Positions 23,983 to 61,909 of a DNA stretch of 64,000 nt are shown piece by piece (the first letter of the stretch is position 1; every line of letters begins with the position of its first letter). This stretch comes from Alphaproteobacteria bacterium (GTDB lineage Bacteria > Pseudomonadota > Alphaproteobacteria > Bin95). A program made the position numbers and the translations under genes. Location of the stretch: assembly GCA_964291285.2 (NCBI GenBank), contig OZ219785.1:1088001-1152000 (forward strand), given 5' to 3'. A model generated the notes under the pieces. The model had not been told where the DNA came from. It searched no databases and saw only the letters and a program-made list of their open reading frames with translations.

Positions 23983-25038
23983 ATGGTGGAACTTCGACGG
24001 GGCTGGACGACGGGTGCCTGCGCGGCGGCGGCGGCGCGGGCCGCCTGCGAACGCCTGCTCACGGGACGCCTGCCCGACCCGGTCGCGATAGACCTGCCGC
24101 GCGGTCTGAAAGCCTCCTTCCCGCTTGCCGAGACCGGGGAATGGGTGGGCGTGCGAAAAGACGCCGGCGACGACCCGGACGCGACACACGGCGCCATCGT
24201 GCGCGCCCGCCTGCATCCCGCGCCATCGGGCGCCGGCGTGCGTTTCCGCGCGGGGCCCGGCGTTGGCACCGTCACCCTGCCCGGCCTGCCGCTCGCGGTC
24301 GGCGAGCCCGCGATCAATCCGGGGCCGCGCGCCATCATCGCCGCCAATCTCCGCGCCGTCGCGGACGAATACGGGCTCGGGGCGGACTTCGAGACGGAAA
24401 TCGGCATAGAGGACGGAGAGGCGCTGGCGCTCAGGACAGCCAATGCCCGGCTCGGCATCGCCGGCGGGCTCTCGGTGCTCGGCACGACAGGGGTCGTCAT
24501 CCCCTATTCCTGCGCGGCTTGGATCCATGCGGTGCATCGCGGCGTGGACGTGGCGCGGGCCGCCGGCCTCGACCATGTCGGCGCGGCGACCGGGCGGGGC
24601 TCGGAGGCGGCGCTCCAGGCGCTGCTCGGCCTGCCGGACCACGGCATGATCGACATGGGCGATTTCGCCGGCGCGCTGCTCAAATATCTCCGCCGGCGGC
24701 CGGTGGCGCGGCTCAGCCTCGCGGGCGGTTTCGGCAAGCTCTCCAAGCTCGCGGCGGGGCATCTGGACCTGCACTCCGACCGCTCCGCCGTCGATATCCC
24801 GCGCCTCGCAGCGGATCTGAAGGCGCTCGGCGGGCCGGACGCCAGCGGTGCGCGGAGCGCGGGCGCGGTGCTGGACCTAGCCGGCGGCCTGCCGCTTGCC
24901 CGGCGCATTGCCGAGCAGGCGCGCGAGACCGCGCTTGCCGCGCTCGCCGGCGGCACGCAAGTCGATGTCCGCGTGATCGACCGGCGCGGCCGGGTGATCG
25001 GCGAGGCCGGCGTAGATCGAGGAAGCGGTCTGGAATAA
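23983..25038 (+). CDS. cbiD: Cobalt-precorrin-5B C1-methyltransferase
   Basis: LRRGWTTGACA, KDAGDDPD.THG, GEPAINP, GGLSVLGTTG; C-terminus probably extended by an insertion. Confidence 0.92.
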   Translation: MVELRRGWTTGACAAAAARAACERLLTGRLPDPVAIDLPRGLKASFPLAETGEWVGVRKDAGDDPDATHGAIVRARLHPAPSGAGVRFRAGPGVGTVTLPGLPLAVGEPAINPGPRAIIAANLRAVADEYGLGADFETEIGIEDGEALALRTANARLGIAGGLSVLGTTGVVIPYSCAAWIHAVHRGVDVARAAGLDHVGAATGRGSEAALQALLGLPDHGMIDMGDFAGALLKYLRRRPVARLSLAGGFGKLSKLAAGHLDLHSDRSAVDIPRLAADLKALGGPDASGARSAGAVLDLAGGLPLARRIAEQARETALAALAGGTQVDVRVIDRRGRVIGEAGVDRGSGLE

Positions 25039-25100
25039 TCGCGGCGGGCGTTATGCCATCCAGCAGCGCACCGCTTCACCGATGGAACCGGTATCGCGTC

Positions 25101-25355
25101 TCAGCGATACACGTCTCTGCGACGGCGCACCCGGATCGCCAGCACGGTGAGTTCCTCCTCCCGGATCTCGTACACGACCCGATACTCGCCGACCCGGATT
25201 CGCCGCAATCCGCGCAGCTCCCCCTTCAGTGTGCTCCCCGTGAACGGGTTCCCGGCAAGGCTGTCGATCGCCTCGGCGAGCCGCGTGCAGGCCGGCCCGG
25301 CGATCCGGGCCAGCTCCCTGGCCGCGCTCCGCTTAATCCTGACCGAGTAGGTCAC
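25101..25355 (-). CDS. RelE/ParE family toxin
   Basis: YSVRIKRSA.REL, LKGELRGLRRIRVGEYRVVYEI, R.DVYR. Confidence 0.88.
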   Translation of the reverse strand: MTYSVRIKRSAARELARIAGPACTRLAEAIDSLAGNPFTGSTLKGELRGLRRIRVGEYRVVYEIREEELTVLAIRVRRRRDVYR

Positions 25356-25554
25356 GCCTGACGTCATCCCAGTCGAGCACCGGGTCGCCGGGGTCGCGGA
25401 GTCGGTCTATCGCGACACTCAGGTCGTCGAAGTCCTCAACGTAGCGCTCGATGGCCTGGCGGATCACCTCCGCGCGGGAACGCTTGAGGTCCCGGGCGGC
25501 GTTGTCGAGGGCCCTGACCAGTTCATCGGGAAGCCGCGCTGAAACCTGTGTCAT
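25333..25554 (-). CDS. CopG/RHH antitoxin
   Basis: QVSARLPDEL..ALD..A..LKRSRAEVIRQAIE.Y.ED..D. Confidence 0.85.
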   Translation of the reverse strand: MTQVSARLPDELVRALDNAARDLKRSRAEVIRQAIERYVEDFDDLSVAIDRLRDPGDPVLDWDDVRRDLLGQD

Positions 25555-25603
25555 GGTTTGACTCCGGGTGAAGTCATTCAATGTCGAATACATTACTCTA
25601 CTG

Positions 25604-25669
25604 TCAAGCTGTCGCATAGCCAATTGCGAACGCCTTGACGCCTGCCCCGGTGAGGGTGACATTTCGCAT
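25604..25669 (-). pseudogene. Tyrosine integrase 5' stub
   Basis: MRNVTLTGAGVKAF versus MAKTTLTEARVKAL at 58313; shared ACTGGA.CCGGGAGAA leader. Confidence 0.7.
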
Positions 25670-25772
25670 GTGTATTCTCCCGGTTCCAGTCGCGATATTC
25701 GTTCTCCGGTTGCAAGTTTCGAGAGAGAAACGACGCTTTGTCAGATAGTTAGAACCCAAAGGTGCGAGGCCG

Positions 25773-26522
25773 GTGTCTAGGCCCCGCATCCTCATCCTGG
25801 GCGGGACGGGCGAGGGGGCGGCGATTGCGCGGGCGCTGGAGGGAAAGGCCTCGGTCGTGAGTTCCCTTGCGGGCCGGACGCGGCGCCCGGCGGCGCTTGC
25901 GGGCGCGGTCAGGACCGGCGGCTTCGGCGGCGCCGAGGGCCTTGCGCACTATCTCGGCAAGCAGCGCATCGACCGGCTCATAGACGCGACGCACCCCTTT
26001 GCCGCGCGCATCTCCGCCAATGCGCGCGAGGCCGCGGAGCGGGCGGGCGTGCCCCGGCTTGCGGTCGAGCGGCCCATGTGGCGGCGGCAGCCGGGAGACC
26101 GCTGGATTTGCGTGGCCGACGCGGCGGCGGCCGCCCGGGCTTTGCCGGACCTGCCGGACGCGGTGTTCCTGACGCTCGGCCCCGGCGACCTCGACGCCTT
26201 TGCGGGCCTGAGCGGCCGGCGCTTCGTGCTGCGGCGCATCGACCCCGGCCCCTCGCCGCTGGCCGGCGCGGAGGTGGTGCTGGCGCGCGGTCCCTTCGAC
26301 CTCGCAGGGGAACGCAGACTGTTCGAGGACTACGGCATCCGGACGCTGGTGACGCGGGCTTCCGGCGGCGCGGCCACGGAAGCCAAGATCGCCGCTGCGC
26401 GCGAACGCGGCGTTCCGGTCGTGATGATCCGGCGGCCGCCGGCGGAACCGGGCCCGCGCGTTTCCAGTGTCGAAGCGGCCGTCGCGTGGGCGCTCAGCAG
26501 CGCCGGCAGCGGATCTTCTTGA
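25773..26522 (+). CDS. cobK: Precorrin-6A / cobalt-precorrin-6A reductase
   Basis: ILILGGT.E, SLAGRT, GGFGGAEGL, IDATHPFA, RGPF, MIRRP. Confidence 0.92.
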   Translation: MSRPRILILGGTGEGAAIARALEGKASVVSSLAGRTRRPAALAGAVRTGGFGGAEGLAHYLGKQRIDRLIDATHPFAARISANAREAAERAGVPRLAVERPMWRRQPGDRWICVADAAAAARALPDLPDAVFLTLGPGDLDAFAGLSGRRFVLRRIDPGPSPLAGAEVVLARGPFDLAGERRLFEDYGIRTLVTRASGGAATEAKIAAARERGVPVVMIRRPPAEPGPRVSSVEAAVAWALSSAGSGSS

Positions 26523-44176: not shown

Positions 44177-44766
44177 GGTCGGATCCTCGCTGTCCGTCTT
44201 GCGTGCATCCCTTCGGGGTTGCAGCGCTGCAGGAAGTCCGTAACCGTTCTATGAGGCTGTGAAACGCCGGGCTGCGTCATCGAGGCGCACGAATTCCGCA
44301 CCGAGGCCGCGAAGGCCCTGGATCAGCCGTTCAAGGAACAGCATCCGGTGGCCCCGGCCGATGACCAGCGGGTGGAAGGTGTAAATCTCGAACGTGATTT
44401 ATCGAGTTAGGGCACTATCTGACAGAGGGTCGCATTCCTCCCATGAAGGGGTCCTGAATACAGGATATTTTCGGGCATGACAAGAGGCAATGGCAGGAAA
44501 TCGGGATTGACCTACAGGGAGGTCGTGAAGGCGATAGTGGCACTGGGGGAAGCAGAATGGGGACAATGCGTTGTGCTCAGGGGGGCATGGAGGATAGCTC
44601 CATGCATGAGTGCCCTCCTGATGTAAAGACAGTCAGGATCATGGCGGTGATGCACCGAATCACCTTGTGAGAGGACAAATACCATAATTGATACAGGAGA
44701 AACACAAGCGTGTTGGCCGATGGAAATCGGAATGGTGGCGGCTGCGGCGGTTCCAGAGGCGTCGTC

Positions 44767-45150
44767 ATGAGCCGGCCGCCGGGGGGCCGCCGCACCCGGC
44801 ATGCGGTGATGGCGACGGCGAACGAGTGGGCGCGCATCAGGGAGCTTGCCGACGAGGCGGGCATGGAAATATCGCGCTACATCGTTCACCGGGCCATCAT
44901 GGCGGAGGCGGTGCCGGCCGTCGTCATGCGGCGCGCGGTGCGCGAACTGCTGGTGCTGGTGAAGGTAGAGCAGGAGCGCATGGAGGACCTCGACCTGGGG
45001 GACCGCTGGGCCGCTCTCGGCGATGCCGTCGATGCCTGGCTCTCGCGGGAGGGCGACCTGGACCGTCTGACCGACCCGGGCGCGGTAGCGCGCTGGCAGG
45101 CGGTTTCGGCCAGTGCTGATCCGGAAGGCGGCCCCGCGCCGCAGCCCTGA
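44767..45150 (+). CDS. MobC-like ribbon-helix-helix protein
   Basis: V.AT..EW.RI...A..AGM.ISRYI; next ORF (MARLVCRT) is cut by an IS fragment. Confidence 0.55.
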   Translation: MSRPPGGRRTRHAVMATANEWARIRELADEAGMEISRYIVHRAIMAEAVPAVVMRRAVRELLVLVKVEQERMEDLDLGDRWAALGDAVDAWLSREGDLDRLTDPGAVARWQAVSASADPEGGPAPQP

Positions 45151-45178
45151 GGCGGTCATGGCAAGGCTGGTTTGCCGT

Positions 45179-46010
45179 ACAGGTGGCATATCCGCCCGCT
45201 GATCGACACGCGCCTGATGTGGCGGGTCGAGAAGAAGGAGCCGGGCCATGACCCGGCCCGGCCGATCACGCGACCGCTGTTCCCCGGGCGCGCCGACGTC
45301 ATCGTTCATGACGAACGCGGCCGGGTGTCCTGCGTGTGCCCGCAGACCGGCGAGGTCCGCGCCATGGCCTTCCAGGGGTTCGAGGCCGGGCGCGGCGTCT
45401 GCGGCACGCTCAAATACCGCTGCCCCGCAGCCGCCTTCGGCTTCGAGTGCAAGGGACGCCGGGCCTGCCATCGGGCGGGTGGGGTGAAGTCCGGCGAATA
45501 CGGCCGCATCCTGCGCGTCGATCCCGACAGCCATGACCGGCGCCTCTTCACGCCCACGCCCTGGGGCAGCCCGTCATGGCGGCGCGGATACAACCGGCGC
45601 ACGGCCATGGAGCGGATCAACGCCCGCCTCGACCGCAGCTTCAACTTCGAGACCCATTACATCCGCGGACGCGCGAAGATTGAAGACCCGCATCGGGCTG
45701 GCCCTGGCGGTCATGATGGCCATGGCGCTTGCACAGGCCCGCGCCGGACGCGTCGCACGCATGCGCTCCCTGGTCGGCCCGGCGCCATACCTCGATACCG
45801 GCTGACCCCTCAGCCGACTGCCGACAACGCTGACCCAACCCGCCGGACCCCGGCATACGGACAAACGCGACCGAAGGCCGGCGATGCTGCCGGGCTGGGC
45901 CGCTCAAGTTCGAAAAGCAACCGCGGCGACCGCCTCGAACGCCGGAACAAACAACATCACCACCCGGACCCAACGTCCCATCCGACCGGAAAAACACCAC
46001 AGCGCAAATT
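45179..46010 (+). pseudogene. IS5/IS1182-like transposase 3' fragment, frameshifted near 45679
   Basis: Near-identical inverted copy of ~57124-57955; YNRRTAMERIN. Confidence 0.8.
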
Positions 46011-46085: not shown

Positions 46086-48296
46086 ATGGCGACGAAACCC
46101 ATGGAGTATTTTGTTGACAGCGAGGAGACGCTGGATCTGTCCCGCACTACCGGGGTGAACCACATCTCGCGCGCGGAGGGGCACTACGGCTCGATGCACG
46201 TCCTGGGCGGACAGGGCCACGATGTCTTCCAGGGGAACTGGGGCGACGACTACTTCAAGGATGCCGGCGGCGGCAGCCTCGCGAAAGGCGGCGAGGGGCA
46301 GGACTATCTCGAAGGCGGCTACGGCATGAATGTCCTCCATGGCGGCCGGGGCAGCGACACCCTGGTCGGGAACCAGGAGGACGCGTTCTCCGACCGTCTC
46401 TACGGCGGCGCCGACGGCGACTATCTGATTGCAGGCCGGGTCAAGGACAGCAGCCGGGTGGACGACGGCACCGGCGCGCTCACCGGCACGACGAGGGGCA
46501 GGGGTCCGCAGAGCGACCAGGAGGTCGAAAACCCGCGGGGGAACATCCTCAACGGCGGCACGGGGTTGGACAAATTCATCCTGAACCCCGACAGCTACGT
46601 CTACATTGAGGACTACGAGCGTCCGTGGGGATCGAACAACACCAGGGACTCCATCATTGTGACCGGTCTCGGGGACGGACCGAGGCCCACGATCGTTCAC
46701 CACCCCGATGGCGTCTACGGGAACGCCCACTTCCGGATCATGCTGGGCGACAAGGTGCTCGCCGAGCTCAACTACGGGAAGGCTGTCTCCGGGGAGGGTG
46801 TCGATTTCGCGATCGACTGGATCGGCCAGAGCCTCTCGACGCAGCGCGGGGAGTGGGTCCAGGGTACGCAGGCGGGCGATAACCTTTCGGGCAGCGCCTT
46901 CGAAGACAAGATCTATGGCCATGGCGGCAATGACCGGCTCGACGGCGGCGCGGGCGGTGATGAAATTCATGGCGGCCACGGCAACGACATCCTTCGCGGC
47001 GGGGACGGTTACGACACGATGCTTGGTGGTCAGGGCAATGACACGCTTTACGGCGGTGCGGACAGCGACGCGATTGTTGGCGGTGGCGGCAACGACCTGC
47101 TCTACGGCGGCGCCGGCGAGGATGAGCTAATCGGCGGCTACGGCCACGACCGGCTTGACGGCGGTGCGGGCCAGGACAAGCTCTTTGGCGACAGTGGCCG
47201 GGACATCTTCGTCATCAGCACGACCGACGAGGCTCCCGACATCATCGCGGACTTCAATGTGGCTGAGGACTATGTCCGGCTGCCGTTCGGTCTCGCATGG
47301 GACGATGTGCGGTTCGAGGCGGGCACCCTCGACGCCCCGCGGTGGGGCATCGAAGGCGAGAAGGTGCATTTCCTCGTCACCGGTACAGGGGAGGCGAAGA
47401 AACAGCTTGCCGCGTTCCAGGGTCTCGACGCGAAAGACCTGTCGAAGGTCGAGTTCATCTGGGACTTCGATCCGACCGAGGAGCAGCCGGATCCGGATGC
47501 CGGGAAGACGCTCAAGGGCACGAACAGGAAGGACCTGCTCGTCGGCGGGAACAACGACGACACCATTGACGGCAAGGGCGCGGCGGACGTGCTCTACGGG
47601 CGCGGCGGTGACGACAGGCTCTTCGGCGGCAATGGCAAGGACACGCTGTATGGCGGCAGCGGCGACGACCTCCTGTTCGGGGATGACAACAACGACATCC
47701 TCCACGGCGGCGCCGGCGAAGACACGCTGAACGGCGGGAAGAGCGCCGACCGTCTGTATGGCGAAGACGGCGATGACACGCTCAATGGCGGCAATGGCGA
47801 CGACATGCTGTATGGCGGCGCCGGCAGCGACAAGCTGGACGGCGGGGACGGCAATGACCGGCTGGAAGGCGGCGAGGGGGATCTCGATGTGCTGGCCGGC
47901 GGCGCGGGCGAAGACCGGCTGTTCGGCGACGGTGGCAACGACCGTCTGGAGGGCGGCGAGGGCTCTGACCGTTTGCGTGGCGGCGAGGGCGCCGACGAGT
48001 TCCTCTTCCGCGCGGGCGACGGCGTCGATGTCATCACCGACTTCTCGGTCGAGGATAATGACACGATCATCTTCCTGGCGCAGACCGAGGCGCAGGCGAT
48101 AGCCGGAAACGGTGAGAAGTTCCTGGATGCTTCCGGCCTGAAGATCGTCGACGACTACGAGGCGGGCGGCGTCAGGATCACGTCGAACAAGCTCGACAAC
48201 GAGATCATCCTCAAGGGCGTGACGTTCGAGCAGCTGTCGATCGACAGCTTCAGCTTCGTGACGATGGATGAGTACACGGATCTCGTGAACGGCTGA
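46086..48296 (+). CDS. RTX Ca-binding repeat protein (probable T1SS substrate) RTX1
   Basis: Many GGxGxDxL nonapeptides, D.ITDF C-terminal motif, no signal peptide. Confidence 0.9.
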   Translation: MATKPMEYFVDSEETLDLSRTTGVNHISRAEGHYGSMHVLGGQGHDVFQGNWGDDYFKDAGGGSLAKGGEGQDYLEGGYGMNVLHGGRGSDTLVGNQEDAFSDRLYGGADGDYLIAGRVKDSSRVDDGTGALTGTTRGRGPQSDQEVENPRGNILNGGTGLDKFILNPDSYVYIEDYERPWGSNNTRDSIIVTGLGDGPRPTIVHHPDGVYGNAHFRIMLGDKVLAELNYGKAVSGEGVDFAIDWIGQSLSTQRGEWVQGTQAGDNLSGSAFEDKIYGHGGNDRLDGGAGGDEIHGGHGNDILRGGDGYDTMLGGQGNDTLYGGADSDAIVGGGGNDLLYGGAGEDELIGGYGHDRLDGGAGQDKLFGDSGRDIFVISTTDEAPDIIADFNVAEDYVRLPFGLAWDDVRFEAGTLDAPRWGIEGEKVHFLVTGTGEAKKQLAAFQGLDAKDLSKVEFIWDFDPTEEQPDPDAGKTLKGTNRKDLLVGGNNDDTIDGKGAADVLYGRGGDDRLFGGNGKDTLYGGSGDDLLFGDDNNDILHGGAGEDTLNGGKSADRLYGEDGDDTLNGGNGDDMLYGGAGSDKLDGGDGNDRLEGGEGDLDVLAGGAGEDRLFGDGGNDRLEGGEGSDRLRGGEGADEFLFRAGDGVDVITDFSVEDNDTIIFLAQTEAQAIAGNGEKFLDASGLKIVDDYEAGGVRITSNKLDNEIILKGVTFEQLSIDSFSFVTMDEYTDLVNG

Positions 48297-52136: not shown

Positions 52137-54521
52137 TCAGCCGACGAAGTCGAAATCGGCCTCGGTCAGTTGCGACGCCTGGATCCCCACCACGGTAACA
52201 GTCCCCAGGGACCAGGTGATGACCGCGCCGCTGTCGGACTGCCGGATCACGAGGTCGTCGAAGTCGAGCTCCGAGTCTTCCGTGTAGAAGTCGATGCGGT
52301 CTATTCCGTCCTCAAAGCCGACGATCTTGTCGTCGCCGCCCTTCGTGAATCCGAACGAGTCGTAGCCCGGGCGGCCCCGGAGCGTGTCGTCGCCCTTGCT
52401 GTCGTCGAGTGCCCAGTCGGGCAGGCCGACGAAGTGAAAATCGGCCTCGGTCAGTTGCGAAGTCTGGATCCCCTCCAGGGTGATGGTCCCCAGGGACCAG
52501 TTGATGGCAGCGCCGCTGTCGGACTGCCAGATCTCAAGGTCCTCGAAGCCGAGTTCCCCGTCGATCGAGTGGAAGTCGAGGCGGTCCGTTCCGTCCTCGA
52601 AGTCAAGGATCGTATCGTCGCTGCCATCGTTGAATCCCCACTGGCTCCAGTAGCCCTTCTCGAAGAAACCGAATCGGTCGGCGCCCTCCCCGCCCCGGAG
52701 CGTGTCAACCCCCAAACCACCCGAGAGGAAATCGTTGCCCTTGCCGCCTTCCAGCGTGTCGTCGCCGTTACGACCGGTCAGAAAGTCGTGGCCGTCCCCA
52801 CCCCAGAGCTCATCATCGCCCGAATTGCCGCGGAGGAGGTCGTTACCCCCGCCGCCATAGATTATGTCATCGCCTTTTCGACCGTAGAGCTTGTCGTCAC
52901 CCGAGTTGCCGTAGATCGTGTCGTCGCACGCGGTGCCAAAGAGCCAATCGCGGTCCGCGCTGCCACGAATGGTCACGCCGCAGGCCTCAACGTCGAGCGT
53001 CCCATCGCCCGAAGTGCCCGGGATCGTGTCTTTGTCCTCGCCGCCGTCGTTGTCATCGTCGAGGGGGTTGCCGCCGTCGTTGTCGTTATCGAGGGGGTTG
53101 CCGCCGTCGTTGTCGTTATCGAGGGGGTTGCCGCCGTCGTTGTCGTTATCGAGGGGGTTGCCGCCGTCGTTGTCGTTATCGAGGGGATTGCCGCCGTCGT
53201 TGTCGTCGTCGCTCGTACTGGCGCCGTAAGCGGCCTTTTCGTCGCCGCCACCGCCAGCAGGCAGGATGAAGTCGTTCGCATCCAGACTGTCTGCCGACAC
53301 GCCCGACAGCCTGATCGTGTCGCCGCCGCCGCCGTAGCGAATGACGGTATCGGCGCCGTCCTGCTCGATGACCAGTGCCGTGAACCCGCCGGATACGCCG
53401 TCGAGGCGAATCCGGTCGCCGGCTCCGAAGTCGGTAATGATGTCGGCGCCGTCTCCCGCCTCGAACACGAAGGTGTCGGCGCCCTTGCCGCCCCCCAGCG
53501 TGTCATCGCCCGCGCCGCCGCGCAGCGTGTCGGCACCCCTGGCGCCGCGCAGCGTGTCGTCGCCCGCGCCGCCGTCCAGCGTGTCGTTGCCCTTGCCGCC
53601 CCCCAGCGTATCGTCGCCAGCCCCGCCGGTCAGCGTGTCGGCGCCCAGGCCGCCATAGAGGAGGTCGTCGCCGGCCCCGCCGATCAGCGTGTCGGCGCCC
53701 CCGTAGCCACGCAGGGTGTCGGCGCCATCACCACCGGTGAGCGTGTCCGCGTCCTTGCTACCCTTCAGCACCTCCCCGCCAGAAGGCCCGCCGCTCGAGG
53801 CATCATCGTCGCCGTCATCGTTGCCGTCCGGCGGCGCACCCTGTGCAGGAGCGTCCTCGCCGCCGCCCTCCGGCGAGGCTGCCTCGACGGGAAGAAACCG
53901 GAAGTCGTCCGCGCCAAGGGAGGCCGCCGTCACGCCCTCCAGCTTGATCGTGTCGCCGTCGCCGTAGCGGATGACGGTATGGAAGCCCTTCTGCTCGATC
54001 ACCAGATCCCCGAAACCGCCGGACACCCCGGCGATCTCGATGATGTCGCCAGCCTCGAAATCGCCGATGTAATCGGCCCCGTCGCCGACCGCGAACGCAA
54101 AGACGTCATGGCCACTGCCGCCATAGAGCGAGTCCGCGCCCCGGCCGCCGGTCAGCCTGTCGGCGCCCCGGCCGCCTTCCAGACGGTCGTTGCCCGCACC
54201 GCCATAGAGCGTGTCGTCCCCGTCGCCGCCATAGAGCGTGTCGTTGTCCGTGCCGCCGTCCAGCGTGTCGTCGCCCGCGCCGCCGTCCAGCACATCGTTG
54301 CCAGCGCCGCCGTCCAGCGTGTCATCGTCCGAGCTGCCGGGGTTCATGAGGAGAAAGTCCGCGTCGGCTCCCGGGCTTGCGGTTCCGCCCGTCAGCGTGT
54401 CGTCGCCGTCGCCGCCCGTCAGGATGTCGTCGCCGAGGCCGCCCGTCAGGATGTCATTGCCGAGGCCACCCGTCAGGGTGTCGTCGGCAGCGCCGCCGGT
54501 CCGGGAAATATCCTGTGTCAT
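52137..54521 (-). CDS. RTX Ca-binding repeat protein RTX2
   Basis: GGxGDDTL repeats, duplicated C-terminal module, DFDFVG end. Confidence 0.9.
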   Translation of the reverse strand: MTQDISRTGGAADDTLTGGLGNDILTGGLGDDILTGGDGDDTLTGGTASPGADADFLLMNPGSSDDDTLDGGAGNDVLDGGAGDDTLDGGTDNDTLYGGDGDDTLYGGAGNDRLEGGRGADRLTGGRGADSLYGGSGHDVFAFAVGDGADYIGDFEAGDIIEIAGVSGGFGDLVIEQKGFHTVIRYGDGDTIKLEGVTAASLGADDFRFLPVEAASPEGGGEDAPAQGAPPDGNDDGDDDASSGGPSGGEVLKGSKDADTLTGGDGADTLRGYGGADTLIGGAGDDLLYGGLGADTLTGGAGDDTLGGGKGNDTLDGGAGDDTLRGARGADTLRGGAGDDTLGGGKGADTFVFEAGDGADIITDFGAGDRIRLDGVSGGFTALVIEQDGADTVIRYGGGGDTIRLSGVSADSLDANDFILPAGGGGDEKAAYGASTSDDDNDGGNPLDNDNDGGNPLDNDNDGGNPLDNDNDGGNPLDNDNDGGNPLDDDNDGGEDKDTIPGTSGDGTLDVEACGVTIRGSADRDWLFGTACDDTIYGNSGDDKLYGRKGDDIIYGGGGNDLLRGNSGDDELWGGDGHDFLTGRNGDDTLEGGKGNDFLSGGLGVDTLRGGEGADRFGFFEKGYWSQWGFNDGSDDTILDFEDGTDRLDFHSIDGELGFEDLEIWQSDSGAAINWSLGTITLEGIQTSQLTEADFHFVGLPDWALDDSKGDDTLRGRPGYDSFGFTKGGDDKIVGFEDGIDRIDFYTEDSELDFDDLVIRQSDSGAVITWSLGTVTVVGIQASQLTEADFDFVG
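53041..53210 (-). repeat. 30-bp in-frame tandem repeat (DNDGGNPLDN, about 5.5 copies)
   Basis: CCGCCGTCGTTGTCGTTATCGAGGGGGTTG units. Confidence 0.95.
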
Positions 54522-54675
54522 CGCGCTCTCTCCTCAACGCATGGGTCCATGGCAGGGCATGAAGGCATCCCGAGCCGAAAGTCTATTCCGTGCCGGCAGC
54601 CGCGGCAAGCGCCCAGGGAAAATTTTTAGTCGAACCGCGGGCTTTGTCTGAGTGATGTCGGTCTGGCTGCCGGTG

Positions 54676-55090
54676 TTTGCCGTGAAAATTGTTGGGGATC
54701 GGGCGCAAAAAAAACCTCCCCGCCAAAGCACTGCTCCCGAGGCGTCCGATACTCGCCATCTGCGGCGCCCGTCTTGCGGACCCTGACCGGTAGGCAACCC
54801 CGTAAAAGCCCGAAGTCCCGCCCGCGCGGCCGGCACCTGTTTTCATGATACGGGGTGGCCGACCCGCCCGACAATGAAGGTTTTGCCGTGAAAATTGTTG
54901 GGGATCGGGCGCACAAAACCCCTCCCCGCCAAAGCACTGCTCCCGAGGCGTCCGATACTCGCCATCTGCGGCGCCCGTCTTGCGGACCGTGACCGGTAGG
55001 CAACCCCGTAAAAGCCCGAAGTCCCGCCCGCGCGGCCGGCACCTGTTTTCATGATACGGGGTGGCCGACCCGCCCGACAATGAAGGTTTT
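54676..55090 (-). repeat. Tandem 206-bp non-coding unit x2 upstream of RTX2
   Basis: Units start at 54676 and 54882, with a few substitutions. Confidence 0.92.
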
Positions 55091-55228
55091 GGGGAACCCC
55101 AGACGTTTCTGGCCGCCGTCATGGTGGTTTCTTGATGCCGCGGTCCAGTGTTTTCGTCCTCGACGGGCGCAGTTGTTTTGCTGCGCCGTTCTTCGGCCCG
55201 AGCCTGTATTGCGGTGGGGGGTGGGGTA

Positions 55229-57025
55229 TCAGCCTCTGGGCGCGATCATAATCGCGTCGAGGGCCTCTTGGGCGCGGGCGGCGTAGTGCCGGTTGGCCTC
55301 GGGTACATATCGGAAGCGTCCGTCGCAGCGCACGATAGCGATGGCCGCGTTGCTCAAGCAGGCCAGATTTCCGGGCAGGTGGCGCACATATGCCCGGCAA
55401 CGGTCTTCGTCATAGGTGAAGTCACGCACATAGTGCACACGGTTCTCAATGTGCCAGTGGTTGCGCACCAGATCGAGAAGCTCCTTGGGGCCGGCTCGCT
55501 CTGCGCCAAGCGACGTCAGGCTCCAGGTGACCTCGATGCTGCGCTTGCCGGTTTTGAGCATCTTGCGCTCGCGTTCCATGCGCATTGCCTGGCGGCGCCC
55601 GTGAAGGTGGGCGTAGCCGTCCCACTCGGCAGCGCAGAGGTCGACGACGGCGCAGCGTCGGCGCTCAATGCGACCATGGCCCTTGTCGACGGTTTCGTGC
55701 CAGGGCGCATCGCTGAAGTCGATCGCCTTGAGGTCTTCGAGGATGGTCTGCTGGTTGCCCTTCACCGCGCTGACCACGTAGTCGGCACGGCGTTCGAGCA
55801 GGCAACGCGCGGTCTCGTGCTGGGCGTGCATCGCATCGATGGTGACGATCCGGCCTGTGAGGTCGAGACCGCTGGAGAGTTCGCGCACGGCCGGGATTTC
55901 GTTGCTTTTGGAGCTGACTTCGACCTGCCCGAGGACCACGCCGGTGTCATGCGCCACCGCAGCGACCATCCTCCTGCGCCGGTCTTCGCTCTGCTTCGAG
56001 GCACCGCGCAAATCCTTTCCGTCCATGGCCACAGGCGCGTGCGCACTGCTGTGCTGTCCGGCCCACTGGCCGATGGCATTGTCCAGGGTCTGTGGCGGCA
56101 GGGCGGCGAGGATGTTGTGGAAGGTGGTGACCGCCGGCGGCGTGTAGCACTGCCTGGATGGGCTCCAGAAGGCGCCCACCGCCTTGAGTTGCTTCTGGGA
56201 GAGCAGGGCGGCGAACTGGGCGAAGGCGTTCACACCCCGGTATCCGGCAAGCCGGGCGGCAACGGCCAGCGTCAGAATGGTGGTGAGCGCATAGCGCTTG
56301 CCCCGGGCATGGCGGTATTCGGGCACCTCGCCCAAACACTCGAACAGGCTGCGCAGCCGGGGCGCCGCCATCGGCTCGGTGTGCTGCTCAGCGTTCCAGT
56401 CTGCCGGTATCTCGGGATGGCTCAGCGCCTCGGGGGCGCCGTGTGTCAGTTCGAACACGAAGACCTCCTTGGGCTGGCCGTGGTGACGCCAGCGCGCCAC
56501 CCCTCCGGGCTCGCGGGCAAAGCCGCGCGTCAGACCCAAAGAGCGCCAGTTGGCCGCGCGGTAGCAGGTGCCGGCGAAGCGCGAGACGTCCACAAACGTC
56601 TCCGCCACAACAGCCGGATAGCCATGCGCCGCCCGCAGGTCCTGCGACAGCCGCCGCACGCTCAGCCCCAGCACCCGCGAGGCAAGGTTGGGAACCCGCT
56701 CAGGCGTCAGGATGACAAAGCGCGAGTTGTTGGCAACCAGATGCAGGCGACGGAACTGCTGCTCCGCCGACCACCCGATCCAGCGGTCCCGCGCTCCCAC
56801 CTTGAACGCTCCAGGCTGCCAGCCAACCAGGGCAAGCCAGGCCTCGCCATGAACCGCGACATGGCGCAGACCCTTGCCGATGATGCCGTGGAACCGCAGA
56901 TAGTGGTGCGCCGCTACCAAATCGTCCCAGCGCCGGTGCTCCCGTGCCCCCCAGGTCGGGCGCACCGTGACCGCGCGAAGATCAACCCAAACACCCGCAA
57001 ACAGAAACCTCGCCATGACCGGCAC
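55229..57025 (-). CDS. ISAs1 family transposase with N-terminal DUF4338-like domain
   Basis: ANNSRF.IL, NLASR.L, GTCYRAANW; then DGK.LRG, KSNEIPA, DAMH.Q, HW.IEN..H..RD....ED. Confidence 0.88.
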   Translation of the reverse strand: MPVMARFLFAGVWVDLRAVTVRPTWGAREHRRWDDLVAAHHYLRFHGIIGKGLRHVAVHGEAWLALVGWQPGAFKVGARDRWIGWSAEQQFRRLHLVANNSRFVILTPERVPNLASRVLGLSVRRLSQDLRAAHGYPAVVAETFVDVSRFAGTCYRAANWRSLGLTRGFAREPGGVARWRHHGQPKEVFVFELTHGAPEALSHPEIPADWNAEQHTEPMAAPRLRSLFECLGEVPEYRHARGKRYALTTILTLAVAARLAGYRGVNAFAQFAALLSQKQLKAVGAFWSPSRQCYTPPAVTTFHNILAALPPQTLDNAIGQWAGQHSSAHAPVAMDGKDLRGASKQSEDRRRRMVAAVAHDTGVVLGQVEVSSKSNEIPAVRELSSGLDLTGRIVTIDAMHAQHETARCLLERRADYVVSAVKGNQQTILEDLKAIDFSDAPWHETVDKGHGRIERRRCAVVDLCAAEWDGYAHLHGRRQAMRMERERKMLKTGKRSIEVTWSLTSLGAERAGPKELLDLVRNHWHIENRVHYVRDFTYDEDRCRAYVRHLPGNLACLSNAAIAIVRCDGRFRYVPEANRHYAARAQEALDAIMIAPRG

Positions 57026-57110
57026 ACTGCCATATCAAGAAAAAAATAGCCACCCCGGACCCCACCTCAACATGGCCCAAAGGCAGACAATTAATTCGCC
57101 CTGGAGGAAA

Positions 57111-58193
57111 GCACCGCTTCGAGAAATTTGCGCTGTGGGGTTTTTTCGGTCGGATGGGACGTTGGGTCCGGGTGTTGATGTTGTTTGTTCCGGCGTTCGA
57201 GGCGGTCGCCGCGGTTGCTTTTCGAACTTGAGCGGCCCAGCCCGGCAGCATCGCCGGCCTTCGGTCGCGTTTGTCCGTATGCCGGGGTCCGGCGGGTTGG
57301 ATCAGCGTTGTCGGCAGCCGGCTGAGGGGTCAGCCGGTATCGAGGTATGGCGCCGGGCCGACCAGGGAGCGCATGCGTGCGACGCGTCTGGCGCGGGCCT
57401 GTGCAAGCGCCATGGCCATCATGACCGCCAGGGCCAGGCCGATGCGGGTCTTCATCCTGGCGCGACCGCGGATGTAGTGGGTCTCGAAGTTGAAGCTGCG
57501 GTCGAGGCGGGCGTTGATCCGCTCCATGGCGGTGCGCCGGTTGTATCCGCGTCGCCATGACGGGCTGCCCCAGGGCGTGGGCGTGAAGAGGCGCCGGTCA
57601 TGGCTGTCGAGATCGACGCGCAGGATGCGGCCGTATTCGCCGGACTTCACCCCACCCGCCCGATGGCAGGCCCGGCGTCCCTTGCACTCGAAGCCGAAGG
57701 CGGCTGCGGGGCAGCGGTATTTGAGCGTGCCGCAGACGCCGCGCCCGGCCTCGAACCCCTGGAAGGCCATGGCGCGGACCTCGCCGGTCTGCGGGCACAC
57801 GCAGGACACCCGGCCGCGTTCGTCATGAACGATGACGTCGGCGCGCCCGGGGAACAGCGGTCGCGTGATCGGCCGGGCCGGGTCATGGCCCGGCTCCTTC
57901 TTCTCGACCCGCCACATCGGGCGCGTGTCGATCAGCGGGCGGATATGCCACCTGTCCCACAGCCGCGCCTTCAGGCGGGCGTTGTCGAGACCGCGGTCGG
58001 CGCTGAAATCGGCGCAGCGCCCGGCCATCTCCGGCGCCCCGGCGAACAACTCCTCCAGCATCCCGGACAGCACCCCGGGTTCCGATGCCGACGCCCGCGT
58101 CACCTCGAAGGCCACAGGAACCTCGTAGTCCGTGTCGGCGATCAGGTGAAGCCCGTAGCCGAACCACGACTTCACCTTCTTCCACACCGCGCC
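57111..58193 (-). pseudogene. IS5/IS1182-like element, 5' half removed at the integrase-element end
   Basis: WKKVKSWFGY.LHL, SADRG.D, YNRRTAMERIN; truncation coincides with motif at 58184-58199. Confidence 0.8.
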
Positions 58194-58240
58194 CGCACCG
58201 GTGGGTGCTAACTATCTGACGCAGCGTCGTTTTTTCTCCC
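58184..58240 (+). other. Putative att/left end of two-integrase element
   Basis: ACACC-N5-CGCACC..TGGGT.CTAACTATCTGAC..AGCGTCGTTT shared with reverse complement of 25728-25776. Confidence 0.7.
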
Positions 58241-58312
58241 GAAGTGTAGCGGTCGGGCAAGCGGGTCGCAAGGGCCCGTTCCCCGCCTGCAACTGGAGCC
58301 GGGAGAAACGCA

Positions 58313-59437
58313 ATGGCGAAGACTACCCTCACCGAGGCGCGCGTGAAGGCGCTCAAGCCCCGCAGGTCCGTCCGCGAGGTCCGCGACGGCAGGCTCAGGG
58401 GGTTCGGCGTCCGGGTGTCGCCCTCGGGCCGCAAGCAGTTCTTCATCCACTGCCAGCATCGCGGCGCGCGTATCTGGAAGATCGTCGGCGACGCCGGGTC
58501 GATGAGCGTCACGGACGCGCGGGCTGCGGCTGCGGACATGCTCACCGCCATCAGGCGCGGCGGGGAAGCGCCGCCTGCGCCGGACGAGACGGTCTTCGAG
58601 GCTGTCGCCGAAACCGTGTTCGAGCGCCATGAGCGCCTCTGGAAGGCCGGAACGCTCCATGTGAACCGGGGCTACCTTCGCAATCAGCTGCTGCCGCATT
58701 TCGCCGGGCGTCCGGTTGCCGCCATCGACCGGCAGGAGGTAAGGAACTGGTTCGCCCGCCTGCGCGCGGTGCCGGTGGCGGCCGACAGGTCGATGCCGGT
58801 GCTGTCCGTCATCATGAGGGAAGCGGAGGCCATGAGCCTGCGCCCGGAGGGTTCCAACCCCTGCCGGGGCATCCGCCGCTACCGCCGCAAGGGCCGCGAG
58901 CGGTTCCTCCCGGACGAGGAAATCCGTCGCCTGTCCGGAAGACTCAAGGCGCATGAGGCCTGCTGGCCGCAGCATGTCGCCGTCATCCGCCTGCTGCTGC
59001 TGACCGGCTGCCGCAAGGGCGAGATCCTCACCCTGCAATGGTCCGATTACCGCGAAGGCCGCCTGTTTCTCCGCGATTCCAAGACGGGGCCGAGAACCGT
59101 CTGGCTGTCGGAGCCGGCCCGGACGGTGCTTGATCGTCTCGAGCGTAAGGGGCGATGGATATTCCCCGCATCTCGGGGCGACCGGCCCCGGAGCGGGTGC
59201 TGGCTGGACCACTTCTGGCGCAGGGTCCGCGCCGAGGCGGACCTGGAGGACGCCCGCCTTCACGATTTGCGCCATACGCATGCGAGCCTTGCCCTCAGGC
59301 AGGGCGAGACGGTGCTCGCCATCGGCAAGCTGCTGGGCCACCGCAGGCCGGAAACCACGCTGAAATATACCCATGTCGCCGACGCCATGGTGCAAGACGC
59401 AGCCGAGACGGTCGGCGCCGTGCTGGAGGCAGACTGA
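58313..59437 (+). CDS. Tyrosine integrase 1 (N-terminal arm-binding domain)
   Basis: GFGVRVSPSG.K; LTGCR..E, SKTG, HDLRH, LLGH, T.KY. Confidence 0.92.
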   Translation: MAKTTLTEARVKALKPRRSVREVRDGRLRGFGVRVSPSGRKQFFIHCQHRGARIWKIVGDAGSMSVTDARAAAADMLTAIRRGGEAPPAPDETVFEAVAETVFERHERLWKAGTLHVNRGYLRNQLLPHFAGRPVAAIDRQEVRNWFARLRAVPVAADRSMPVLSVIMREAEAMSLRPEGSNPCRGIRRYRRKGRERFLPDEEIRRLSGRLKAHEACWPQHVAVIRLLLLTGCRKGEILTLQWSDYREGRLFLRDSKTGPRTVWLSEPARTVLDRLERKGRWIFPASRGDRPRSGCWLDHFWRRVRAEADLEDARLHDLRHTHASLALRQGETVLAIGKLLGHRRPETTLKYTHVADAMVQDAAETVGAVLEAD

Positions 59438-60582
59438 TGGCGGGCCGGGAACGGATGAAACTCACCGACGCCGCCGTCGCCCGTCTCCGCCCCCGCGGGC
59501 GGGAATATACGGTCCGGGACACGCGCATCGCCGGCCTTGGCGTCCGGGTGCGGCCCACCGGCGGGCGCAGCTGGGTGCTGCTGCTCGACAGCGGCGGGCG
59601 CACCAGGCGCGTCTCGCTCGGCCCGGTTGGCGTGAAGAGCGCCGCCGAAGCCCGCCGGGAGGCTCTCGAGCGCCAGGCGGCCCCGCAGCCGGAGGAGACA
59701 GCCGCGCCGCCCGGCGCGGCCCCGCTGTTCCGGGATTTCGTCGCGGGTTCGTGGAAGCAGGCACACTTCGACCGCTACAAGCCGTCGGGCCAGCAAACCG
59801 CGTCCGGGATACTCCGGCGACAATTGCTTCCCGCATTCGGCCCGAAGCCGCTCGACCGCATTGTGCCGGGCCATGTCCGGCAGTGGTTCGACCGCTACAG
59901 CCGGACCGCACCCGGCGGCGCCAACCGCGCTTTCACCCTCCTTCACCAGATCATGAACTTCGCCCTCGCCTGCGGTCATGTCGAGGTCAATCCGGCCAGG
60001 CACATGAGAAGGAACCGCCGCCCGGCACTCACACGGTTCCTGTCCCGGGAGGAACTCGCACGTCTCCATGCCGCCCTGGACGCGCAGACCCGGAAGAGCG
60101 CGCGGCAGCAGGCCGACATTGTCCGGCTGCTGCTGCTGACCGGCTGCCGCAGAAGCGAGATCACGGGCCTCGGCTGGTCGGAAGTCCGCGAGGACGGGCT
60201 GGCGCTCACCGATGCCAAGACCGGACCGAGGACCGTTCCGCTCGGCAGCGGCGCGCGGGCCATTCTCGACCGGCAGCCGCGCACGGGCAGCGCGTTCGTG
60301 TTTCCCTCGCCGCGCGACCCCGCCCGCCCGCGCAGCCCCGACCTGCCGCTCTGGTACCGCGTCAGACGCGAAGCCGGCATCGGGGATGTCCGCCTCCACG
60401 ACCTGCGCCATACCATGGCCAGCCATGCCGTCATGAACGGCGTGCCCGTTCCGGTGGTCTCCCGCCTGCTCGGACATTCCGATGTGCGCATGACGCTGCG
60501 CTATGCCCATCTCGCCGACCGCGACATCGAAGCCGCCGCGGAACGCGTCGGGCAGGCCATGAACGCCATCATGGAGACATAG
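59437..60582 (+). CDS. Tyrosine integrase 2 (N-terminal arm-binding domain)
   Basis: GLGVRVRPTG; LTGCR.SE, AKTG, HDLRH, LLGH, T.RY; TGATG coupling. Confidence 0.92.
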   Translation: MAGRERMKLTDAAVARLRPRGREYTVRDTRIAGLGVRVRPTGGRSWVLLLDSGGRTRRVSLGPVGVKSAAEARREALERQAAPQPEETAAPPGAAPLFRDFVAGSWKQAHFDRYKPSGQQTASGILRRQLLPAFGPKPLDRIVPGHVRQWFDRYSRTAPGGANRAFTLLHQIMNFALACGHVEVNPARHMRRNRRPALTRFLSREELARLHAALDAQTRKSARQQADIVRLLLLTGCRRSEITGLGWSEVREDGLALTDAKTGPRTVPLGSGARAILDRQPRTGSAFVFPSPRDPARPRSPDLPLWYRVRREAGIGDVRLHDLRHTMASHAVMNGVPVPVVSRLLGHSDVRMTLRYAHLADRDIEAAAERVGQAMNAIMET

Positions 60583-60931
60583 CCAAGGCTGAGGCGATCA
60601 ATCTGCTCCTTCATGACCAGACAGCACGATATCCGATGGTGCGGCGCCCGTGCGGGTGCTGCGCCGCATGGCCCGAAGCTGTGACAGCGGTCCCGGGCGT
60701 TTGCAATTAGGCTGCTGCCTGTGCTATCAGGCCGTGGAGAGAGGGGAAGAGTCGTGGCGGAGATGCCGGGCGAGTTAGCGATGCGCAGGCTGCTGCGGCT
60801 GTTGGGCCGGGGCGCGACCGCCTCGCGCGCGCGTGACCTTTTCGTACCCCCCCCCCCATAAGCGTTATCTTGTTTAGCGATTGAGGCTCGTTTAGCATTG
60901 TGCCGGTGGGCGAAGCTTGGGAACTGTGTTG

Positions 60932-61275
60932 ATGGATAATGATTGGGAGCTTTTGGCGACGTTCTTGCCGTCTGACTGGCGAGAGTTGGCGTCGGAGCGC
61001 GGCGCGCTGAAGGGTTTGCGCAAGGAGAAGTCGGTCGAGAATCTGTTGCGCATGCTGTTGCTGCATGTCGGGTGCGGGCATTCGCTGCGTGAGACGGTGG
61101 TTCGGGCGAAGAAGGCGGGGCTGGGTGATTATTCGGCGGTATCGCTGATGAAGCGGCTGAGGAAGTCGAGGGACTGGCTTCAGGCGCTGTGCGTTGCACT
61201 TTTCCGGGAACGGGGGCTTGCGCTTGCGGCAGATGGCGGGTTTCAGGTTCGGGCTTTTGATGCGACGACGGTGAA
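60932..61275 (+). pseudogene. IS4 family transposase N-terminal fragment
   Basis: LP.DW..LA...GA....R.....LLR.LL.H...G.SLRE; ends at first catalytic DAT. Confidence 0.7.
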
Positions 61276-61406
61276 GCGGCTCCGCTCCACGTATCGCAGG
61301 GCGCTACGCGGAGCCGCGCGGGGCCCTCCTGTTGACTACCGGGACAACCTACAGAGGGGTCAATCTTCCGCGCCGATCCGGGGTCAACTTTGAACACCGA
61401 TTGACA
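61276..61406 (+). mobile_element. IS21 family right-end remnant
   Basis: Tandem GGGGTCAA..CCGAT repeats ending CCGATTGACA. Confidence 0.7.
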
Positions 61407-61865
61407 GGCGGAGTCGTTGTCATCCATTCTGTCCCTATATTCTTGCAGAATGTCTTCGTTCGGTATCAAAATTCCCCTTTCATTGGGAACATAGTGTTTC
61501 GCCCAAGCCCCACCTTCCCAATGTGTAATCGCGACAAGACGAGGTGTGCTGTCAGACAAGCTATCGACAACCTCGTCAACCAGAGCCGAGGTTCTCTTGT
61601 CTCTTACCGCAGCCATAAACGGAAATGCATCCGACTCAACCGGACGAGAACCATAGCGCCTTAAGGTGCGGTAAAGCTGGGGATGGACAGGGCCTAAATC
61701 CCATGCCTCAAAATGGCCGGACACAAGAGGTACAAGAGGTGCACCGTGCCGCCCCAGATGGATCATGTGGGCGATATACACGAGCTTTTGAAGCGCTAGA
61801 TGGGTAAGCTGCCAGTCTGACCGCTCACCCATACGCTTCGCCACGGCAAGCGCCGATGTTGTCAA
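61407..61865 (-). pseudogene. Panacea (DUF4065/SocA-like) antitoxin, stop removed by IS21 end
   Basis: LT.L.LQKL.Y.A, FEAW..GPV.P.LY, L...TH....W, I....I..Y. Confidence 0.8.
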
Positions 61866-61909
61866 GATGACCTCCGCTGCCAAAGCAGAATAGCATGATC
61901 TGTCAAGCC

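Follow-up and report, generated by a model that had tools for sequence, protein, structure and literature searches.

Transposon-like bacterial elements that use several tyrosine recombinases are few (Tn554, the SE elements, GInt and RIT), and their mechanisms are largely unsolved. Relaxed target choice is familiar from the integrases of Tn916, CTnDOT and NBU1, which recognize a short conserved motif beside a variable crossover region, the bases of which may mismatch and change between hops. The SE elements SE-6945 and SE-6283/Tn6283, described by Nonaka, Yano and colleagues, require IntA, Tfp, IntB and Srap, one of the recombinases being large; as far as the accessible text of PMC10214605 and PMC9345347 describes them, they are present at one or two copies per replicon, use several target sites with a 6-bp spacer, and take their attL bases from the target and their attR bases from the donor, the latter resembling the target (TTTTCT versus TTCTTT or TTTTTT). 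Tn554, in the passages of PMC10214605 that mention it, moves with two tyrosine recombinases, carries a short left-flank sequence from the donor to the new right side and duplicates no target bases. In the accessible portion of PMC3414803, a BIM module consists of one recombinase and an unrelated protein, GInt of ginABCD, and RIT of three recombinases. Here, we compare with these systems an element found in a 64-kb stretch (the window: 64,000 nucleotides of contig OZ219785.1, our contig C1) of a 6.1-Mb alphaproteobacterial genome, where two overlapping tyrosine integrase genes, int1 and int2, lie just beyond a truncated insertion sequence (IS).

The locus probably represents the recombinase module and left end (LE) belonging to one of many copies of an integrative, transposon-like element. 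The unit comprising both integrase genes (58184/58194 to ~60561-60616) recurs more than 20 times in the genome with 76-96% identity, both genes are intact in 16 of 16 LE-linked copies, and insertions are matched by empty sites, which upholds the proposal of an initial annotation of the window that a conserved, coupled pair of arm-domain integrases drives such an element. By composition, the element fits none of SE, Tn554, GInt, RIT, Xer and BIM, and it is best classed among the tyrosine-recombinase transposons as one with a two-integrase composition that we did not find described: the literature, to the extent of its accessible text, yielded no description of a transposon with two DUF4102 integrases, and such pairs might be listed in the supplements of PMC3414803 (Tables S2-S4) and PMC10214605.

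Both integrases match, above the curated Pfam cut-offs, Arm-DNA-bind_3 (DUF4102, PF13356; E = 1.5e-10 for Int1 and 1.1e-8 for Int2), Phage_int_M/SAM_3 and Phage_integrase (PF00589; E = 3.9e-20 and 7.2e-22), and they are 40% identical to each other (152/384, E = 2e-67). Their alignment holds the motifs TGCR(K/R), (S/A)KTGPRTV, HDLRHT, LGH and (K/R)Y(T/A)H, which we take to be the catalytic R-K-HxxR-H-Y residues; the two proteins are therefore, as had been claimed, paralogues with complete catalytic sets and arm-binding-like domains. The TGATG said to join their genes is equally real, formed by the int1 TGA (59435-59437) overlapping the int2 ATG (59437-59439). Across the LE-linked copies Int1 ranges from 374 to 388 and Int2 from 381 to 403 amino acids, the TGATG overlap is kept in 15 of 16, and dN/dS, with the window copy as reference, is 0.17-0.31 for int1 and 0.25-0.38 for int2. 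Close relatives bear only the database names 'site-specific integrase' or 'tyrosine-type recombinase/integrase'.

A word-indexed search returned 6220 protein relatives, the best 120 of them at 77-94% identity. Among 52 other-genome loci, found with Int1 in metagenome-assembled genomes (MAGs) labelled Alphaproteobacteria, Defluviicoccus, Rhodospirillaceae and, in two cases, Chloroflexota/Dehalococcoidia, an Int2-type gene stands directly after Int1 in 47; the remaining five comprise one internal deletion, one locus cut by a contig end and three without Int2. The two loci from MAGs labelled Dehalococcoidia and Chloroflexota (L130 and L158; 73-75% identity) carry the Int1-Int2 arrangement, and could reflect cross-phylum transfer or mis-binning. 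A Shewanella baltica plasmid encodes a comparable pair of genes that overlap by 4 nt, of which the leading one shares 39% identity with Int1 and the trailing one 41% with Int2; restriction-modification cargo comes next, and CCACACCCCACGC lies 5' of this pair and again ~6.8 kb downstream, past the cargo. At L055 (NC_017570.1, 12190-12680), past the restriction-modification cargo of this Shewanella element, there are three or four tandem units that start with AAAAATGCC(A/T)CCTT and end with ..CACAC(T/C)(T/C)CACGC, and these look like the stacked right ends of successive elements. Maximum-likelihood analysis separates the first from the second genes as two clades, and in each of them falls the matching Shewanella gene, with support of 91/90 for the Int1 type and 100/99 for the Int2 type, these two branches being long.

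Because the copies are intact and overlapping, dN/dS is low, the pair is found at 47 of 52 MAG loci and in Shewanella, and the two gene types form separate clades, int1-int2 is, judged from these comparisons, an old and conserved two-gene unit. Both genes would then be needed, and Int1 and Int2 may act as a heteromer with divided labour, by analogy with XerC/XerD. The integrases might instead be no functional pair, but two abutting single-integrase islands, or one enzyme with a decaying or regulatory paralogue in an ordinary fixed-site island; P4/SXT-type integrases normally act alone (general knowledge, and the IntSXT section of PMC8138268), and one genome (G030) has a tandem of two Int1-like genes without the Int2 type. 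We consider this unlikely, given the fixed gene order with stop/start overlap in 15 of 16 copies, the purifying selection and preserved catalytic motifs in both genes, the recurrence of the pair in MAGs and on a gammaproteobacterial plasmid as separate orthologous clades, and the presence of at least 10 different target sequences in one genome.

The anatomy of the element follows from a BLAST census with its end sequences, which found 21 LE and 14 right-end (RE) matches. Eight correctly oriented LE/RE pairs enclose 8.2 to 38.7 kb, and a relic between cbiD and cobK also has both ends. Each element consists of LE (CGCACC...CTAACTATCTGA), int1-int2, 5-34 kb of variable cargo and ~290 bp of conserved RE; what all eight have in common is limited to the left 2.37 kb (LE, int1, int2) and the final ~290 bp, and in some of them the shared right block extends to as much as 0.8 kb. 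LE is conserved in 19 genomic copies and shows the dyad GCACC-N3-5-GGTGC; RE carries an inverted GTCAGATAGT motif and ends in ..GAGATTT-ACACC. The sequence ACTAT(C/T)TGA occurs singly and forward 18 nt from the left tip in six of the eight elements (the other two have ACTACCTGA), and singly and inverted 38-39 nt from the right tip in all eight. The CTAACTATCTGA motif to which the initial annotation gave an arm-type role is thus a conserved part of LE and is present in inverted form at RE; as both proteins have arm-binding domains, these sub-terminal inverted motifs are candidate arm-type sites. The elements at C3:1616819 and C5:400414, which occupy unrelated sites, are 99.86% identical over 7229 bp, a near-identity that suggests recent movement.

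The IS junction in the window defines the left tip. Intact 1939-bp copies of this IS (IS-A) read ...CTTCC ACACCGCGCC GGTCTTCG, and every intact copy among the ~30 in the genome runs on beyond the point at which IS homology in the window stops, position 58193 or IS position 1073, 119 bp before the Int1 start; the transposase cut that had been placed about 115 bp upstream is real. As the IS runs through ACACCGCGCC and CGCACC is not IS sequence, ACACC plus the next five bases (N5) is the target and CGCACC the tip of the element, so that the target is not CC-N5-CGC, as first proposed. The window has just two instances of the pattern ACACC-N5-CGCACC in the form ACACCNNNNNCGCACC, one at 58184-58199 (+) and the other at 25761-25776 (-), against an expectation of 0.04 from 100 shuffles, none of which reached two matches. 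Three further integrase-pair copies stand at exactly the same IS position on contigs C2, C4 and C5. Those on C2 (11.0 kb) and C4 (10.1 kb) are complete and are followed by the rest of the IS, with the right junctions ..GGATTTT-ACACCGCGCC-GGTCTTCG and ..GAGATTT-ACGCCGCGCC-GGTCTTCG, respectively; the right junction of the type TACGCC-GCGCC with the transposase remainder after it, foreseen from the left side, is hence found at these two sister copies, as ..TTTAC(A/G)CC-GCGCC. An orphan RE with the right half of the IS is also present on C4.

Elsewhere, too, the insertion point lies directly after ACACC and five variable bases, and six insertions are confirmed by empty sites in sister species or paralogous repeats. 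For IS-A (four occupied copies and one orphan end) the empty sites are the intact copies in this genome, and for a second repeat they are eight of its 11 copies, the other three being occupied; C3:1616819 is empty in five relatives, C3:1579038 in seven, the relic site in five sister species, and the site of a 38.7-kb island that encloses the window copy in four relatives. The genome holds at least 10 different target sequences or flanks, and none of these flanks read as a tRNA gene, although a tRNA scan of all flanks was not made; the claim of many non-tRNA sites that share ACACC with a variable 5-bp centre is in keeping with this. In the first sample of other genomes the LE motif is present in 13 of 16 congeners and in none of 24 others, and LE is conserved at 45 of the 52 MAG loci. 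Lack of conservation of the motif upstream of homologous pairs had been named beforehand as refuting the proposal, yet the motif is conserved there: ACACC stands 9-12 nt before the LE tip at 20 of 30 loci from five congeners (ACACA or ACACG takes its place at five of the remaining 10), at 11 of 11 LE copies in a genome of another family (Int1 at 73-75% identity) and at 42 of 45 MAG loci; over these three sets, its distance to LE is 5-7 nt.

These sites bear on the question of whether the element is no longer mobile and was spread passively by IS copies, segmental duplications and homologous recombination. Seven of the 16 copies lie in the two IS-like repeats, many ends are unpaired, and a 5'-truncated version is found fused to another repeat four times, all of which would suit passive spread. 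Unique chromosomal sites with clean empty alleles in relatives, near-identical copies in unrelated flanks, and the same end structure and ACACC rule in other genera make it very unlikely as the explanation. The four truncated copies (C5:326692, C2:770669, C3:398110 and C2:226730) are cut at the same point, ~58726-58735 in window terms, with loss of the arm-binding part of Int1, and each is fused to the same upstream sequence, itself a 13-copy repeat.

The origin of the bases at the two junctions was read from the empty alleles. In element orientation, every attL reads target-ACACC-N5(-N)|CGCACC.. and every attR reads ..GAGATTT-ACACC-N5|target. At C3:1579038 the empty allele in the relatives is ..A(G/C)ACCGCCGAG|GGCTCC.., and the left and right junctions of the occupied site here are AGACCGCCGAG|LE and RE-ACACCCCTGAG|GGCTCC, respectively; in terms of the recombination sites, attB is AGACCGCCGA-G|GGCTCC, attL is the same, and attR is ACACCCCTGA-G|GGCTCC. 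The right 10-mer thus differs from the target at three of 10 bases, and the flank resumes exactly after a single target copy. At C3:1616819, the target and attL have AGCGA and attR has AGAGA. Across nine junction pairs, the five variable bases are identical in six, differ by one mismatch in two and by two mismatches in one, a match far above chance that points to a needed similarity between the carried bases and the target. The arm itself differs in two cases, the relic and the C4 copy in the IS, where attR has ACGCC for the ACACC of the target. The three flank sets from other genomes (30, 11 and 45 loci) show no attL with ACGCC, and we accordingly take the attR ACACC to be the element's own arm and only the next five, sometimes six, bases to be exchangeable. 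As the carried bases of the two 99.86%-identical copies differ (AGAGA versus CGGGA), they change between hops.

We conclude from these alignments that the 10-bp flanking repeats are, in all likelihood, not a target duplication. If staggered cutting followed by repair had truly duplicated the target site, as happens with DDE transposons, the mismatches would be later mutations; the identity of all 10 bases at both junctions in four of nine pairs, and the single occurrence of the sequence in the empty IS and relic sites, would be expected. That reading is highly improbable in view of C3:1579038, where the right copy departs from the target at three positions and the flank continues exactly after the one target copy, of the mismatched pairs at each of two 99.86%-identical elements, and of a conserved part with no transposase or other nuclease.

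The following mechanism would account for these features of a transposon-like element driven by the integrase pair. A single coupled message would yield both arm-domain integrases, and these would assemble where RE and LE meet in a circle that has been excised or copied out, with arm-type sites close to either end helping to deliver them. The core of this joined element would comprise the RE-arm ACACC, a crossover region of 5-6 bp and the LE-arm (N)CGCACC, and that of the target would comprise ACACC, the crossover region and a non-conserved right side; recombination could occur with any target offering ACACC and ~5 bp that resemble the carried crossover bases. The products would be attL, with the target's ACACC and N5 beside LE, and attR, with the element's ACACC and carried N5 beside the remainder of the target. 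No target bases would be duplicated, and the near-repeat would reflect the need for crossover similarity, with one or two mismatches tolerated. Since attL keeps the target bases, the carried bases can change with each hop, which leads to many sites and to repeated hits in paralogous IS copies: an element in one IS copy would carry a perfect match to the same position in the others, and this would explain the occupancy of IS-A and the second repeat. Spread of already-occupied IS copies is an alternative explanation for that occupancy. High copy number and retained donors suggest copy-out. A Tn916/CTnDOT-like heteroduplex would give the target bases at attL in half of the progeny, an outcome that the data cannot separate from the SE/Tn554 rule.

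A more specific version may be entertained, tentatively and at somewhat less than even odds: that the element is a self-retargeting transposon, in which the five crossover bases of the current site choose the next ACACC site by base pairing during strand exchange, so that it homes to paralogous repeats and drifts stepwise, with one of the two ancient paralogues serving the ACACC arm that target and RE have in common and the other the CGCACC arm of the element alone.

Set against the described systems, the element shares parts with each. As in the SE elements, to judge from the accessible descriptions, two coupled tyrosine recombinases stand by attL, the cargo is variable and imperfect inverted motifs lie near both ends. 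The SE footprint is also found here by comparison of alleles, in two informative cases: attL equals attB and attR differs at C3:1579038 and C3:1616819. The operon intA-tfp-intB-srap is absent, its place being taken by two ~375-aa DUF4102 integrases; tfp would find no space between genes that overlap by TGATG in 15 of 16 copies, and no fourth gene is conserved, homology between the copies breaking off at the int2 stop. The host is alphaproteobacterial, the genome has 16 intact copies, and the conserved ACACC arm is followed by 5 bp, all unlike the SE elements. Two tyrosine recombinases, footprint-type flanks and the lack of target duplication recall Tn554, as described in the accessible part of the literature. 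Tn554, however, has a TnpB of ~630 aa, a required TnpC, one strongly preferred site, Firmicutes hosts and no described DUF4102, whereas here there is no recombinase above 600 aa (Int1 has 374 aa in the window, Int2 381-403 aa across copies), no TnpC and no conserved third gene.

Two paralogous tyrosine recombinases are also the hallmark of XerC/XerD, each of which has its own half-site of an asymmetric site; this serves here as the working model. Int1 and Int2, however, score 38-75 bits in the NCBIfam models against cut-offs of 330-335, and they have arm-binding domains, whereas XerC/XerD lack these and are host housekeeping enzymes that act at a fixed site. Relaxed target choice with a short motif and changing crossover bases resembles Tn916, CTnDOT and NBU1; those have a single integrase with an excisionase and are mostly conjugative or mobilisable, whereas the present element has two integrases, and we recognised no excisionase in it. 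The DUF4102 arm-binding, core-binding and catalytic domains are those of P4/SXT (IntSXT) integrases, as described in the accessible section of PMC8138268, with PF13356 and PF00589 above their cut-offs; P4/SXT islands have a single integrase and a fixed site, often a tRNA or tmRNA, in contrast to the obligate-looking pair and many sites found here. GInt and RIT likewise place several overlapping recombinase genes side by side at an end of a mobile island, but each of the 16 copies here has just two, unlike ritABC, and both have the Tyr motif, unlike ginABCD with its GinC lacking Tyr; no equivalent of GinD is conserved, and the GmtZ model gives 23.9 bits against 600. Membership in one of the named multi-recombinase families (SE, GInt, Tn554-like or RIT) would fit the common layout of a recombinase operon at one end, variable cargo and a short conserved far end, and the footprint-like flanks of SE and Tn554 (accessible text of PMC10214605 and PMC9345347), but we give it hardly any credence, as no gene between or after the integrases is conserved among copies, both integrases are ~375 aa with DUF4102, the only NCBIfam gamma-mobile-trio integrase match stays at 23.9 bits against its cut-off of 600, and SE Tfp and Srap are reported, in the accessible text of PMC10214605/PMC9345347, to have no Alpha- or Betaproteobacteria homologues by PSI-BLAST.

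Several points weigh against the reading of the locus as part of a mobile two-integrase element. All movement (circle formation, excision and transposition) is deduced from comparisons rather than seen directly. The assignment of attL to the target depends on two cases for the variable bases and two for the ACACC arm, and one case, the island, is ambiguous at the 11th base; the division of binding and cutting between the integrases and the heteromer are conjectural. Several LE and RE are unpaired, and the window copy itself, for which a right end and the missing transposase half had been expected beyond position 64000, has neither nearby on C1 by end census and IS homology, such partners being found at the C2 and C4 copies; most likely it entered the IS inside the larger related island and its right end has since been lost or separated. 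The RE consensus of this genome, allowing up to one mismatch, gave a single match, with a mismatch, in five congeners, and the right ends and element lengths described here are those of this genome. Hairpin ends in single-stranded DNA (LE GCACC-N3-5-GGTGC; RE AAATCTC-ATTC-GAGATTT) were considered and rejected: DNA folding gave z values of -0.2 to -0.4, no better than shuffles, and a common GGTGC-to-GGTTC variant breaks the pairing, so the tip dyads are kept as conserved dyads only. Rearrangement or misassembly is possible in a genome with ~20 repeats of 2.4 kb, and the assembly has an estimated contamination of 4.77%. Parts of the element are present in five sequencing runs (Logan contigs), with no RNA run listed among them.

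Table 1. Features of the integrase element, the relic and the enclosing island in the window.
Feature	Position	Strand	Description	Basis
Relic attR core ACGCCGGCCT	25004..25013	-	One base off target; cbiD frame kept (..GEAGV)	
Relic	25014..25766	-	LE, first int1 codons, ParE toxin, ribbon-helix-helix antitoxin, degenerate RE	Five sister species empty
ParE toxin	25101-25367		Within relic	
Ribbon-helix-helix antitoxin	within 25333-25662		Within relic	
Relic attL core ACACCGGCCT	25767..25776	-	Target copy	
Island attR core ACACCTTCCA (- strand)	44373..44382	-		Sister genomes uninterrupted
Island right-end block	44383..45180	-	Conserved 290-bp RE, tip 44383	RE census, junctions, alignment
NikA-like ribbon-helix-helix open reading frame	44710-45150	+		Pfam, 26.4 bits (cut-off 27)
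IS, left 1073 bp of 1939 bp	57121..58193	-	DDE_Tnp_1; cut by element; ~30 genomic copies 97-98% identical	Pfam
IS transposase open reading frame	57330-58187	-	5'-truncated; within IS fragment 57121..58193	
attL core ACACCGCGCC	58184..58193	+	IS (target) sequence: ACACC arm and 5-bp crossover region	Single in intact IS copies
LE	58194..58312	+	Tip CGCACC, dyad GCACC-N4-GGTGC, sub-terminal CTAACTATCTGAC, terminator-like GACGCAGCGTC+T6, ribosome-binding site	
int1	58313..59437	+	Tyrosine integrase, 374 aa, DUF4102-type arm-binding domain	ORF call, Pfam, alignment
int2	59437..60582	+	Paralogous tyrosine integrase, 381 aa, translationally coupled to int1	ORF call, Pfam, alignment
Copy-specific cargo	60583..64000		SocA/Panacea-domain and unassigned open reading frames; no RE up to the window end	Homology to other copies stops 60561-60616

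The miniature relic in Table 1 interrupts the junction of cbiD and cobK, which in five sister species is a single uninterrupted GAGGCCGGTGT, reading ..GGCGAGGCCGGTGTCTAGGCCC.. across the cbiD stop and the cobK start. The insertion in the window amounts to 753 bp, or 763 bp with one 10-bp core. The suggestion that this spot holds a relic with ACACC-N5-CGCACC, and that the element leaves miniature derivatives behind, is accordingly confirmed by the empty site and by the retention of LE with a degenerate RE. The whole relic is also present in two congeners (92% and 85% identity) and its toxin-antitoxin part in three more; it is therefore old. The core at its right junction (25004-25038) re-creates the last cbiD codons, after which cbiD runs for eight extra codons to a new stop, and on the other side cobK retains its GTG start, so that neither of the two overlapping genes is broken by the insertion. 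The same site is occupied by LE in another species (G007:C3:2400682, L075), either inherited or hit repeatedly.

The enclosing island extends from its RE at window position 44383 (- strand) to C1:1171129, past the window end, so that the integrase pair and the IS fragment of the window lie inside a larger element. At its site four sister genomes read ..ACACCTTCCAC|CCGCTGG.. uninterrupted, and a fifth species has an LE at the same point (G005:C145:13666, L053), again inherited or hit repeatedly. The island belongs to a diverged subfamily, bounded by diverged LE and RE, and its own integrase pair is 76% identical. Its cargo includes repeat-rich open reading frames (ORFs) with GGxGxD-like motifs (46086-48296 + and 52137-54521 -), read by eye as RTX-type.

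The RE of the island (44383-44672, -) contains long invariant DNA blocks such as ACTTCCCCCAGTGCCA and TCATGGGAGGAA, which are found in the last 290 bp of all eight complete elements and could be binding sites or belong to a small RNA or small accessory protein. A conserved small gene in RE was rejected as a candidate: a reverse-strand peptide, ..LTY(R/E)EVVKAIVALGE.., can be read in six of the eight, the frame is closed in the other two, the upstream frame varies among copies, and conservation is at the DNA level, third positions included. At the other end, the terminator-like hairpin GACGCAGCGTC with T6 (58217-58239, +) lies inside LE just 5' of int1 and overlaps the 'AGCGTCG' motif of the initial annotation; transcription running out of the disrupted host gene might be stopped here before it reaches the integrase genes. 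No sigma-70-like promoter was found in 58100-58400, and Rfam at gathering thresholds gave no match in the window.

Cargo differs widely. Three elements carry Slam, an unassigned 596-aa ORF and a porin; others bring a 2273-aa fn3-repeat protein, or NrtR-NUDIX, ARPP-1, ADP-ribosylglycohydrolase and an IS. A NikA-like ribbon-helix-helix ORF (26.4-40.6 bits, cut-off 27) lies in the right block of some elements and is absent from those with Slam cargo, which were recently active. An integrative mobilisable element would bring its own relaxase, or an oriT with an accessory protein; annotation of three elements turned up no relaxase, and no search for oriT was made. The prediction of toxin-antitoxin or defence cargo holds for the relic, with its ParE and ribbon-helix-helix genes, and fails in general: the other elements carry Slam/porin, fn3 or NrtR/ARPP cargo, and PADLOC matched none of seven window ORFs (six downstream of int2 and one upstream of the IS fragment), the former region holding the SocA/Panacea-domain ORF and several unassigned ones.

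A ~100-nt repeat at 57001-57107 and 63888-64000 occurs at dozens of places on all five contigs with 93-100% identity; tandem copies of it seem to underlie overlapping ORFs at 54534-55122, and it has the look of a repetitive extragenic palindrome or miniature inverted-repeat transposable element. The 598-aa ORF at 55229-57025 (-) has a DruA-like N-terminal domain with DDE_Tnp_1_assoc and DDE_Tnp_1 and no PADLOC match, and is a transposase with a Druantia-protein-like domain.

To the small group of multi-recombinase elements, this family adds a minimal version, with two ordinary arm-domain integrases and two short ends and no accessory gene. Its clear ends, many natural pairs of insertion and empty site, and high copy number open the chemistry of footprint-type transposition to direct test. 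Members are widespread, the paired arrangement being found in Alphaproteobacteria and on a gammaproteobacterial plasmid, and the family moves diverse cargo and reshapes the genome, as the nested islands, the disrupted IS copies and the cbiD/cobK junction illustrate. If it is true that five crossover bases guide targeting, the pair would amount to a small, re-addressable integrase of interest for genome engineering.

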